From positions 671,392-735,391 of the forward strand of contig ML992505.1 of NCBI GenBank assembly GCA_010093995.1: a stretch of 64,000 bases of DNA, written 5' to 3'. Shown piece by piece: positions 53,551-56,665 of the stretch. Below the pieces are notes generated by a model. It had not been told where the DNA came from, did no database searches, and saw only the letters and a program-made list of their open reading frames with translations. The stretch is from Elsinoe ampelina (taxonomy: Eukaryota). The stretch's first letter is position 1; every line of letters begins with the position of its first letter. Position numbers and translations under genes: made by a program.

Positions 53551-53901
53551 GATTGGCTGGCGTTTCTTCGATGTCACTCAGCCGGAGAGTTTGAGCAATC
53601 GCGGCTGCGACTAAATCATGCAATGTTGATCTTACTACTGTGCTCTCTCTCTCAGTGATCATTTCATGATTGAAATGTGTGAATCAGACCACGAGCAGTC
53701 AGTCGTGTCATCACGTGTGGCTTCGTCCATGCAGCGAGATGCTCTGATCCTGACCTGCAAGCAACCATTGGATACCCGCCCTGCATTTCTTCCTTCGTCA
53801 TTGGGCATTGAAGGTATTTAACCGTGACACAATTCTATGCGCTGGCAAATCACCCTTCGATCGCATCGATTTACCGCCCGAAAAGGCGGTCATTGGGCAT
53901 T
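53551..53901 (-). promoter_or_regulatory. Cluster of CCAAT boxes upstream of HAP3
   Basis: ATTGG at 53552, 53767, 53800 and 53892; 13-bp direct repeat GTCATTGGGCATT at 53797 and 53889. Confidence 0.35.
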
Positions 53902-54347
53902 CAGCTCGCAAACTCTCGTGGTTCCTGCATGGGCTTGGCGAGCAGAAGCACCCCACGCCCGCCATCCCAACTCAGTCGCGTCGCTGGAATTTGGGACGCC
54001 AGCTGAATGATTCGAGCTTTCACAATCCACCGCACTGCTATAGACAATCTCAAGAGAAAGACAGCAAGATCGGCATAGACAGCGTACTCTGTCAAGACTG
54101 AAAATCAGCAATATCCCTACCCCAGCCCCGCCGAACGACGCGTTACACCGCTTCTTCAACCCACGTCAATCAAGAACCTCGCTAGTACCTTGCGTCAGTT
54201 GCCCGGCTCCGTAGTCGGCAGCCCATTGCTGCATCCGCATCGTAGCCCGATCAGAAAAAACAGCACGACTCGACTGCCAGCGCATCAATTACGAAGGAGC
54301 CGCAGCCAAGGATCCACCACCCATACCGCTCTCGTCAACATCATATC

Positions 54348-55873
54348 ATGTCTCAGAGCCCAAGGCCGGAAGGAGACGATGAAAAGCAGGACAAGTCCCC
54401 AGATACTGAGGGAAAGGAGGAAGGACAACAAGAGATGTCGCATGACTACCCACCAGAATATGAGGTAGATTCATCTCTGCTTGCTCTCAAGGTACACATG
54501 CTGACATGAGCAGGTCAAGGAGCAAGATCGTTGGTTACCCATAGCGAATGGTAAGTCTTGATTCCACATGTCCCCGTCATTGTGTTGCACAAGGGGGCGC
54601 GAATACGAAGAATCCCTTGGTCGACCGCATCACGAAGCGCCGGCAGCTGCTCAACATGGGGCGGCATCATCCCTCGACTCGAGCCTGGACGCCCGCTATT
54701 TCATCTCGCCAGCCACACCTCTTCTTCCCCGTCGAATCAGAGACATATCACACTCTTCGTCGGGATCAATCATTTTTCTTCTATCAGTGATCTTCAAGGC
54801 ACGCAACATCTCGACTCGCGGATCTCTAGCACAGACCACTGTTCACCATCATGTCAAGTGGCCCAGGAGGTTCTTTCATGCCGGTATTTCATAGCAAGCC
54901 CACGTCGGCACCCGAGGTGACTGCCGGCATGCGACTTCCACCAATACAAGCTCCGCCGCGATATCCCAGCCTCAGCTACACCTATTCGTCCGCGTCCACC
55001 CAATCGCCATCTTCACACGCCTCCCCGCATACGCCTTACAGCGCTCCCTCTCCAGCGTTTTCCCATGCGACCACGACGACCGCTTTACCTGCCCAGAGCA
55101 CTCCGGCAGCAGCATCCGCATCCAGGGCGTCCTCGTTCACCGCCAAGGCGTCATCGTCGGGATCCGACACCTCCTCCCGCGGTGCCTCAACCTCTGCCGC
55201 AATTCGCATCGACACCCCAGGAATTTCCGCCGCCACAAGACGCACGCTCAACAATTCTGACGCATGGATTGCTAACTATGCACCAGTCGCTCGATTGATG
55301 AAGACTGCTCTTCCTGAGAACGCAAAGGTATGTTGGCTCGATCTTCCAACAGACTTGCTCTTCGATCTCGGAGCTTCGGCAACGATGAAACAACTGCTGA
55401 CATGCATCAGATTGCCAAAGAAGCAAAAGAGTGCCTGCAAGAATGTGTTAGCGAATTCATCTCCTTCATCACGAGCGAAGGTGCGTCGTCAGAAGGCAAG
55501 CATTCTTCTCCACAGCTAATGCAACGCAGCCGCCGAGAAGTGCCAGCAAGAGAAGCGCAAGACCGTGAACGGAGAAGACATCATCTTCGCCATGACCTCC
55601 CTCGGTTTCGAAAACTATAGTGAAGCCCTCAAGATCTACCTCAGCCGCTACCGCGAAGTGCGCCCCTCCTCCCACGTCTCCGAACCCTACTGACCCATCC
55701 AGACCCTCGTAGCCCGCGGCGACCAGAAAGCAGGAGCAGGCGGACAAGGCGGCAACGCATCCGGCGGCGAGTACGACACCTCCAACCAAGACATCATGGG
55801 CGGCGCCATGGACAACACCCAGCAAGGCGACTACCCCTACGGTGTCCCCGGCGCGGCTGGCGATTTCCAGTAG
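54348..55873 (+). CDS. HAP3: CCAAT-binding complex subunit NF-YB (Hap3/HapC); exons 54348-54464, 54514-54550, 55287-55327, 55411-55480, 55530-55657, 55703-55873
   Basis: [79 protein letters not shown] histone fold. Confidence 0.95.
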
Positions 55874-56665
55874 GACTCCAGAGTGCCTTCGCCGCTGCCG
55901 ATGCCCAGGAGTGCTGAGCAGATACTACGGGACTGGATCTCGACGTGGCAGGATCGAGTGGCGAGAGAGACGGCGTTGGAGGAGAAGGAGGGAGGTGGCC
56001 TGCTTGGAGAGCTGGGGGAGGCGAGCAGCACTTGAGTGTGTCGTGCTGAGGTCGCCGGTGATGTGGAATGTGGTTACGAGAAGCACGATACGCGAGGGGA
56101 TGATGTGTGGGGGGCTGTAATGGGAGGTATTCTGATTCTTGCGCATACTTTCCTCGGACGATCCGCTGCTGTACGATAATGATGTTGAAAATGAAACTGT
56201 GATTGACCACGGGATGCGCTTTGTACAGTCATCTTTCATCCTTTCATCAATGCATGACAATGGTGGGGACGATATTTAGGGATGGATATGGGGATGCAGT
56301 GCAGTGTTGCATTTGATTTATCTAGTAGCTTTCTGGGAATGTTGTGATGGGTTTGTGAGTCGCGTGTGTTGGGGACGAAGTCATGATTGATGGCTGGTCG
56401 CGCCATGTCGTTATGTTGCTAGATCTGCATGTGCTATTGACACGCTGGTATCATGCTGTGATGGACTCGTGGGAACGTGGTGCGGAGCGTGCTGGGAGAC
56501 TCGTGCTATTGTGCTTGTGGTGTGCAAGTCGTGCTGCGAGATTGTCGATGCTGGGTATGCATTGCGGAAGATGGGTCTTTCGAAAGCTTGAGCACGAAGC
56601 TCTTGTGATGCGAGAGCGTTTCCGCAGTGTCGTCGATTGGGGGCGTACGTGAGTTGCAAGGCTGT

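Follow-up and report, generated by a model that had tools for sequence, protein, structure and literature searches.

Intron 2 of the HAP3/hapC gene of Elsinoe ampelina, which encodes the NF-YB (HapC) subunit of the CCAAT-binding complex, very likely holds a conserved alternative first coding exon that is used by transcripts starting inside the intron. The gene lies in a stretch of 64,000 nucleotides (nt) of this fungus (NCBI GenBank assembly GCA_010093995.1, contig ML992505.1, positions 671,392 to 735,391 of the forward strand), which is called the window below and to which all positions refer. A second HapC isoform with its own start was well supported by comparison among fungi and moderately by RNA. 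A hidden alternative in-frame N-terminus that would need its own start within the intron had been proposed from the letters of the window (the original prediction), and the core of this proposal held: the feature was found in 49 fungal loci, it shows substitutions of the coding type, and one spliced mRNA carrying it was detected. As judged from sequence comparison, it represents a widely conserved, apparently undescribed isoform of a well-known transcription factor subunit.

The open frame inside intron 2

Examination of positions 53800-56400, with exon joins checked by a script, gave a six-exon hapC gene on the plus strand, whose canonical coding sequence of 564 nt encodes a protein of 187 amino acids. 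Its five introns are 49, 736, 83, 49 and 45 nt in length. In RNA contigs of X3 and X4, runs that belong to two studies, all five introns are removed, each bounded by GT..AG, and the joint across intron 2 (54549->55286; 736 nt skipped, GT..AG) was present at a depth of 208.5 in X3 and 9 in X4. Because these contigs skip all five introns, the canonical gene model and its oversized intron 2 are real, and the length of 736 nt that had originally been claimed is the one spliced out in both studies.

Within this intron, an open reading frame (ORF) of 145 codons starts at the ATG at 54851, crosses the branch point and the acceptor and enters exon 3, exactly as had been predicted. The accompanying claim that simple retention from exon 2 stops at once was also correct (TGA at 54559-61). 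An in-frame TAG at 54827-29 sits 7 codons ahead of the ATG, giving 152 open codons from the TAG to the acceptor. The length of the ORF by itself was weak evidence, slightly beyond chance, since shuffled introns reached at least 145 codons at P ~0.04-0.10: among 5000 dinucleotide-shuffled versions of the intron as a whole, the chance of a frame open for at least 145 codons was 0.10 (9.7%), and that of one with an ATG so far upstream was 0.035. Besides, the other two frames here are open for 121 and 125 codons, i.e. all three frames are fairly open.

The base composition of the ORF is that of coding sequence. It displays a 3-base periodicity (chi2 39.6, p 5e-7) that was matched by none of 2000 shuffles, and the first 300 nt of intron 2 show no periodicity (chi2 2.8, p 0.84). 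C occupies codon position 2 in 55-75% of the codons over 54911-55270. When 14 long ORFs from elsewhere in the window served to train a codon model, the frame of the intronic ORF was favored by 19.5 log units, as compared with 29.4 +/- 11.4 for 52 coding chunks cut from the window's long ORFs. Tandem Repeats Finder detected no arrays of tandem repeats in the region, and no Rfam match at E <= 1 was found over 54300-55500.

RNA that joins the ORF to exon 3 exists in this fungus. Record 6 of run X3 is a 526-nt contig colinear with 54790-55315, that is, with the last 497 nt of intron 2 and the start of exon 3, and it has no loose end. The single ATG within 54790-54853 is the one at 54851. The end of this contig is not a mapped transcription start, and the contig gives neither strand nor abundance; the X3 contigs leave 54551-54789 uncovered, which is a gap in the contig data and was not used as evidence. 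A pyrimidine tract followed by CAG (tcatttttcttctatcag) is located at 54770-54789, 2 nt ahead of the start of the X3 intron contig, and could either act as an internal 3' splice site or form the pyrimidine-rich core of an internal promoter.

Conservation of the alternative exon among fungi

When the Elsinoe N-terminus was used as a protein query, a single match was found, P0003 (KVT40_007244, a hypothetical protein of 279 amino acids from Elsinoe batatas), which has the same ATG start. It is 94% identical to the window ORF, with 7 differing residues and one 2-codon gap. Beyond the motif described below, protein searches with the Elsinoe N-terminus detected no relatives of the long Elsinoe arm. 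DNA of a further organism, designated C (run X12), aligned across the whole stretch at 90-95% identity. Its ORF contains one indel, the in-frame loss of 6 nt at 54898, which matches the gap of P0003 exactly; three 1-nt indels fall in its intron 4 and several indels in its untranslated regions. In exons 1-2, four of four substitutions are synonymous third-position changes (three of them in exon 1). Since the changes in exons 1-2 are all synonymous and the frame of the ORF is kept, both N-termini appear to be maintained in Elsinoe-type genomes.

We further estimated 35-45 substitutions in organism C over 54793-55333 (a piece total of 85 minus 40 up to 54792). Seven or fewer changed residues were obtained in 10 of 5000 neutral simulations with 20 ORF substitutions (P 0.002) and in none of 5000 with 26 or more, the simulation being conditional on organism C encoding P0003 and the number of substitutions being estimated. 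In the first part of intron 2 (54551-54792, 242 nt), organism C differs by 11 substitutions and one 1-nt deletion, or 4.5%, and divergence is 6.6% at 54031-54347, upstream of the canonical ATG, and 10.5% at 55397-56100, exons included. The low divergence of the first two segments gives a hint that each of the two starts has regulatory DNA that is conserved.

Scanning metagenome contigs with P0003, we kept 80 fungal HapC loci. In 31 of them the canonical junction IAN-VARIMK occurs without an intron, which corresponds to cDNA-like or intron-less forms. The remaining 49 carry D-[AS]-N-I-[RQH]-N-F-A-P|VARIMK in the frame of exon 3 at the intron end, except for L079, which has NFAP only. A frame ending in N[YF]APVAR, which the original prediction had suggested looking for in orthologous introns, is present in these 49 loci. 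Exon 2 with its peptide was found on the same contig in 40 of the 49, and the intron is 229-556 nt long in 39 of these 40 (median ~300) and 59 nt in L079. An ATG-started ORF (M-S/P-S..., then Ser/Pro-rich, 32-50 codons) was observed in 44 of the 49 loci; four others run off the contig and L079 has none. An in-frame stop lies within 6 codons ahead of the conserved ATG in 10 of the 44. L079 (positions 255-317) keeps ATG-TCC-ATT-TGT-AAC-TTT-GCT-CCA-G (M-S-I-C-N-F-A-P) before exon 3, and its alternative exon may have been either lost or shrunk to 8 codons.

The residues D, I, N, A and P of the motif are invariant in a 26-row alignment (A1). Across 39 unique intron ends, variation in the motif is almost confined to third codon positions. 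For example, the non-consensus fractions by codon position are 0/0/0.64 for Ile, 0/0/0.31 for Asn and 0/0/0.51 for Ala; for the Arg codon they are 0.18/0.18/0.69, and switches between CGN and AGR were seen. GCT-AAC (Ala-Asn) and CCA-G (Pro plus acceptor) are nearly frozen, GCTAAC even at third positions. CTAAC is the branch-point consensus, and the frozen GCT-AAC and CCA-G would fit elements that serve as splicing signal and codon at once.

From 37 unique alternative exons, 14 independent closest pairs were formed, with near-identical sequences and pairs more than 30% apart dropped and 9 sequences unused. Differences at codon positions 1/2/3 numbered 51/36/110 in these pairs. The Nei-Gojobori method gave 105 synonymous differences over 364 sites and 92 non-synonymous differences over 1130 sites, i.e. 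a pooled ratio of non-synonymous to synonymous differences per site (pN/pS) of 0.28. Length differences of the alternative exon were multiples of 3 in all of 11 pairs (0, 3, 3, 33, 0, 0, 0, 0, 3, 0 and 6 nt); in the same 11 pairs the part from the donor to the ATG differed by 14, 1, 5, 22, 4, 0, 18, 9, 14, 10 and 5 nt, with many gaps of 1-2 nt. The exon appears to have what is expected of an alternative first exon, namely a conserved start codon of its own and a frame under purifying selection. These comparisons indicate that the feature is by no means peculiar to the hapC copy of the window but widely conserved in Pezizomycotina hapC genes.

One metagenome contig of 1156 nt, L001, contains a complete alternative ORF of 178 amino acids (MPSSSPQSS…DANIQNFAPVARIMK…), which continues through the whole histone fold to the stop. 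Compared with the genomic locus L037 (92% identity), L001 is colinear from 255 nt inside a 494-nt intron; it carries 117 nt ahead of the ATG, lacks exon 2 and has lost two downstream introns (55 and 51 nt) by splicing. The simplest reading is that L001 represents a transcript starting inside the intron. In other fungi the predicted peptide of the alternative form would end in ...SDANIRNFAPVAR.

Using a profile of the alternative N-terminus built from A1, we scored 8000 candidates and obtained 623 proteins at a threshold of E <= 1e-3. The junction was present in all 120 matches listed, 117 by pattern and 3 as SEANIRNFAP (E in place of D). Of these 120, 94 begin within the alternative exon (91 by pattern and the three with SEANIRNFAP), and a downstream intron is removed in 12 of the 94, including the unnamed contig products P0050 and P0122. 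The named species among the matches listed are members of the Leotiomycetes, Sordariomycetes and Dothideomycetes, and orders with the exon include Sordariales and Helotiales. This N-terminus is thus already present in automated annotations of three fungal classes. No description of fungal hapC/hap3 having an alternative first exon or a second isoform was found in the literature available to the search, which left older subscription-journal cloning papers outside, and the accessible parts of PMC2749017 and PMC13221647 contain no mention of isoforms.

The coordinates of these features and of the remaining exons are given in Table 1. With regard to intron 3 (55328-55410), it is absent from the 15 metagenome loci examined, where the frame is uninterrupted from ENAK to IAKEAKE, and organism C has unrelated sequence in its place (63 nt skipped, 67 other letters instead). 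Run X20, a guessed DNA run of low coverage, gave nothing usable for the ORF; it yielded a piece over 55232-55399 with 6 other letters, and pieces over 55409-55482 and 55535-55641 that are less than 90% alike, with 14 and 16 other letters. In one X20 fragment, loose letters resembling the end of exon 3 stand before the exon-4 match, which suggests that this run contains admixed cDNA or a relative without intron 3.

Table 1. Features of the hapC locus in the window.
Feature	Position	Strand	Description
Alternative first coding exon (exon 1b)	54851..55286	+	145 codons, Ser/Thr/Pro/Ala-rich; continues past the canonical acceptor to join exon 3
Minimal 5' leader of the alternative transcript	54790..54850	+	From RNA contig start to ATG; no other ATG
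5' part of intron 2	54551..54789	+	Non-coding, no codon periodicity; presumed promoter/upstream region of the alternative transcript
Conserved motif	55256..55285	+	Local form of S-D-A-N-I-R-N-F-A-P; 26-row alignment A1 and codon alignment of 39 unique intron ends
Branch-point-like TGCTAAC	55270..55276	+	Doubles as Ala-Asn codons of the motif
Canonical exon 1	54348..54464	+	ATG at 54348; 39 codons, acidic N-terminal tail; joined to exon 2 in X3 and X4 RNA contigs
Canonical exon 2	54514..54550	+	Carries the DRWLPIAN segment and the first base of a Val codon
Intron 2 of the canonical transcript	54551..55286	+	736 nt, GTAAGT...TGCTAAC...CAG; 3' end TGCTAACTATGCACCAG
Exon 3	55287..55327	+	Common to both isoforms; RNA-supported
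Exons 4-6	55411-55480, 55530-55657, 55703-55873	+	Rest of the histone fold and C-terminal tail; common to both isoforms
Stop codon TAG	55871-73	+	End of exon 6

Histone fold of the proposed second isoform and known systems

By sequence the gene is clearly of the HapC/HAP3/NF-YB type, and its canonical isoform has every sequence feature expected of this family. Against the Pfam family PF00808 (CBFD_NFYB_HMF; cut-off 21.4 bits), P0003 scored 86.8 bits and the alternative isoforms P0009 and L001 scored 89.2 and 91.5 bits. The match of the alternative forms starts at profile position 6 of 65, and two canonical cDNAs match positions 1-65 at ~100 bits. A fold start with LPIAN before VARxMK is found in the canonical isoform and is missing from the alternative one. 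Since its Pfam match begins at position 6, the alternative form is an NF-YB whose fold begins in a non-canonical way. HapC of A. nidulans (PDB 4G91/4G92 and later entries) has the same fold, and residues 133-223 of P0003 align to 4g91_B with an E value of 1.7e-44; the start of the A. nidulans chain is shared by the canonical isoform of the window and replaced in the alternative isoform. HMMER aligns the alternative segment to this solved chain with a one-residue gap. An AlphaFold2 model of P0009 based on a 13-row alignment was set aside as poor (mean predicted local distance difference test, pLDDT, 53; predicted template modeling score, pTM, 0.29; one long helix). A search of the ESM Atlas with residues 1-48 of P0009 gave best values of 0.83-0.84 to generic NF-YB clusters, below the lead threshold.

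Position by position, the SDANIRNFAP-type motif and the DRWLPIAN motif of exon 2 agree only in the Ala at -7 and in the hydrophobic character of -8 and -11, and an ancient exon duplication is a possible origin of the motif. The idea that SDAWIAN in Elsinoe is a degenerate copy of DRWLPIAN was dropped, as the wider alignment shows it to be the local form of SDANIRNFAP.

The original prediction had further stated that the RWLPIAN segment contacts DNA, and this could not be confirmed from the accessible parts of PMC6652802 and PMC7692634. In the former, Xing et al. 1993 are credited with a 7-residue DNA-binding sequence in Hap3, the residues of which are not given in the part available. The part available of the latter attributes over 40% of histone-fold contacts with phosphates to L1 and alpha1 of NF-YC and alphaC of NF-YB, and contacts of the start of NF-YB alpha-1 are not described there.

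Alternative first exons from intronic promoters are a general eukaryotic mechanism; they have their own start codon, are mutually exclusive with upstream exons and join downstream exons in frame. Unlike the usual exons of this kind, that of hapC is contiguous with exon 3 and needs no splice to it. The branch point and 3' splice site of the canonical hapC intron lie inside the alternative coding sequence, which would place this segment under double constraint. The nearest functional precedent for exchange of the NF-YB subunit as a regulatory device may be Hap31/Hap32 of Candida albicans, two Hap3-type subunits which, according to the available part of PMC6652802, differ in the iron conditions under which each joins Hap2 and Hap5 in a DNA-binding complex. 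However, these are encoded by two genes, whereas hapC here would be one gene with two mutually exclusive 5' ends. Similarly, the accessible text of PMC11802806 and PMC6652802 describes NF-Y activity as diversified by variant subunits in the case of mammalian NF-YA isoforms and the multi-gene NF-YB families of plants. The former involve another subunit and internal alternative splicing and the latter arose by duplication, and neither swaps the start of the NF-YB fold through an exon embedded in an intron.

Competing explanations and consequences

Several observations weigh against a second isoform made from transcripts of its own. In this fungus the alternative RNA is one contig of one study, for which an unspliced or partly processed precursor is a possible source, and the contigs of run X4, which show presence only, contain the canonical form alone. 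Its word depth was 3.7, compared with 208-396 for the canonical contigs; although depth is a poor measure, it suggests that the alternative transcript is a minor form. Among cDNA-like metagenome contigs, 31 have the canonical junction and 1 the alternative, and this one contig, L001, may be a 5'-truncated assembly of intron-retaining RNA. In addition, the synonymous excess in the Elsinoe pair is an estimate that depends on organism C encoding P0003, and 26 of the 120 database matches listed contain canonical exon 2 (DRWLPIAN), a linker and the alternative exon, joined via an internal acceptor. These fused forms, together with the acceptor-like pyrimidine tract and CAG (54770-54787) 2 nt ahead of the X3 contig start, would favor inclusion of the exon in transcripts from the normal upstream promoter via an internal 3' splice site. 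The product would be either a protein with a double N-terminus or an out-of-frame target of nonsense decay that tunes the level of HapC. We consider this explanation improbable. All but one of the fused forms (25 of 26, e.g. P0007, P0013, P0028, P0033 and P0040) are NCBI gene models, and the other, P0048, which is the sole fused form among unnamed contigs, is a genomic read-through. Because their linkers are unlike even among close relatives, as expected of arbitrary acceptor choice by gene finders, and because stops precede the ATG, the fused models are probably gene-finder compromises, i.e. systematic annotation errors caused by the hidden exon. (In one database protein, P0111 of Diplocarpon rosae with 864 amino acids, hapC is also fused to a neighboring rrn3-like gene.) In the window, exon 2 spliced to 54788 is out of frame with the alternative ORF and reaches a stop at 54892-94, and the in-frame TAG stands just 5' of the ATG, as do the stops in the 10 of 44 other loci mentioned above. 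Neither the X3 nor the X4 contigs, which again show presence only, contain a joint from 54550 to an internal site; record 6 has no exon-2 letters, and the 117 nt before the ATG of L001 are colinear with the intron.

It is also conceivable that the exon works in other fungi and is a decaying or neutral relic in this one, with transcription at noise level and a product without a role. The low contig depth and the lack of significance of ORF length by itself would agree with this, as would two peculiarities of Elsinoe: 3 of the 10 motif positions deviate from what is usual in fungi (N>W, R>A and F>Y), and the exon, with 145 codons against 32-50 in other loci, is ~3x the usual length. On the other hand, frame, ATG and motif are intact in two Elsinoe-type genomes, whose single indel is the in-frame one of 6 nt; strong periodicity, with the C-rich second codon position over 54911-55270, extends across the expanded part, and the estimated substitutions far exceed the 7 residue changes. 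GCTAAC in Elsinoe is 9 nt closer to the acceptor than in other loci, and two of the three motif changes, N>W and R>A, coincide with this shift. The branch point has apparently been relocated within the coding sequence, which would suggest adaptation and not decay. A relic is thus regarded as unlikely. Far less credible is the absence of any coding function, in which case the ORF would be C-rich DNA open by chance, conservation of the intron end would be due to splicing signals or to some RNA element, and the protein annotated in E. batatas would be an artefact. The shuffles, in which one intron in ten was open for as long, the openness of the other two frames, and the position of the branch point and acceptor inside the motif are in its favor. 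Yet the motif varies at third positions, including switches between the two Arg codon families; pN/pS and the distribution of differences over codon positions in the 14 independent pairs are of the coding type; and changes in length leave the frame intact in all 11 pairs, next to intron DNA with indels of 1-2 nt. These comparative results already contradict a non-coding origin, and the conserved ATG, the spliced mRNA with the ORF and the lack of an Rfam match point in the same direction.

For the alternative first exon, we propose that two promoters, one of them a putative internal promoter, give rise to two mutually exclusive 5' ends. Upstream transcripts, the majority, would contain exons 1-2, splice from the donor at 54551 and lose the alternative exon along with the rest of intron 2, leading to the canonical protein. 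Minor transcripts would start inside the intron, at or upstream of 54790. Since no 5' splice site precedes the acceptor in such RNA, the acceptor would be read through, and the branch point and 3' splice site would be read as codons. Use of the first AUG (54851) would then give a predicted isoform of 281 residues (477 + 70 + 128 + 171 nt), in which the acidic tail and the exon-2 segment are swapped for a long Ser/Thr/Pro/Ala-rich arm ending in the conserved motif. The fold from VARLMK onward would be unchanged, and the isoform should still pair with HapE/NF-YC while differing in how helix alpha-1 begins and in the tail. This may affect assembly of the CCAAT complex, its DNA binding or its partners, or may make the isoform a competitor, as in the dominant-negative action that the original prediction had raised as a possibility. 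A distinct regulatory role of the second isoform can be put forward only tentatively. It is likewise a speculative view that all or most Pezizomycotina make two B subunits of the CCAAT complex from one hapC gene, the second of which is switched on by its own promoter, forms a functionally distinct complex and has been strongly expanded in Elsinoe. According to this view, the second form would exchange the fold's first turn, together with the acidic tail, for the SDANIRNFAP motif and a phosphorylatable Ser/Pro arm, and the distinct complex might differ in DNA affinity or bending, or in recruitment of partners such as HapX.

The alternative exon would account for the length of this intron, which in many fungi exceeds that of its neighbors several-fold, and for the three incompatible models (canonical, alternative-only and fused) that gene finders have produced. 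It would also provide a clean case of a branch point and a 3' splice site that double as conserved codons. The CCAAT-binding complex (HapB/HapC/HapE), which ranks among the fungal regulators studied most, functions in iron homeostasis with HapX, redox sensing, secondary metabolism, cellulase expression and virulence, and its solved structure contains the canonical start of HapC. A second HapC isoform, apparently conserved in at least three fungal classes, would alter the histone fold precisely at its first residues. If this is true, knock-outs, tagged constructs and cDNA complementation may each have deleted, overlooked or wrongly expressed one protein of the two, and the second isoform may constitute an unrecognized layer in the control of iron, redox and secondary metabolism.

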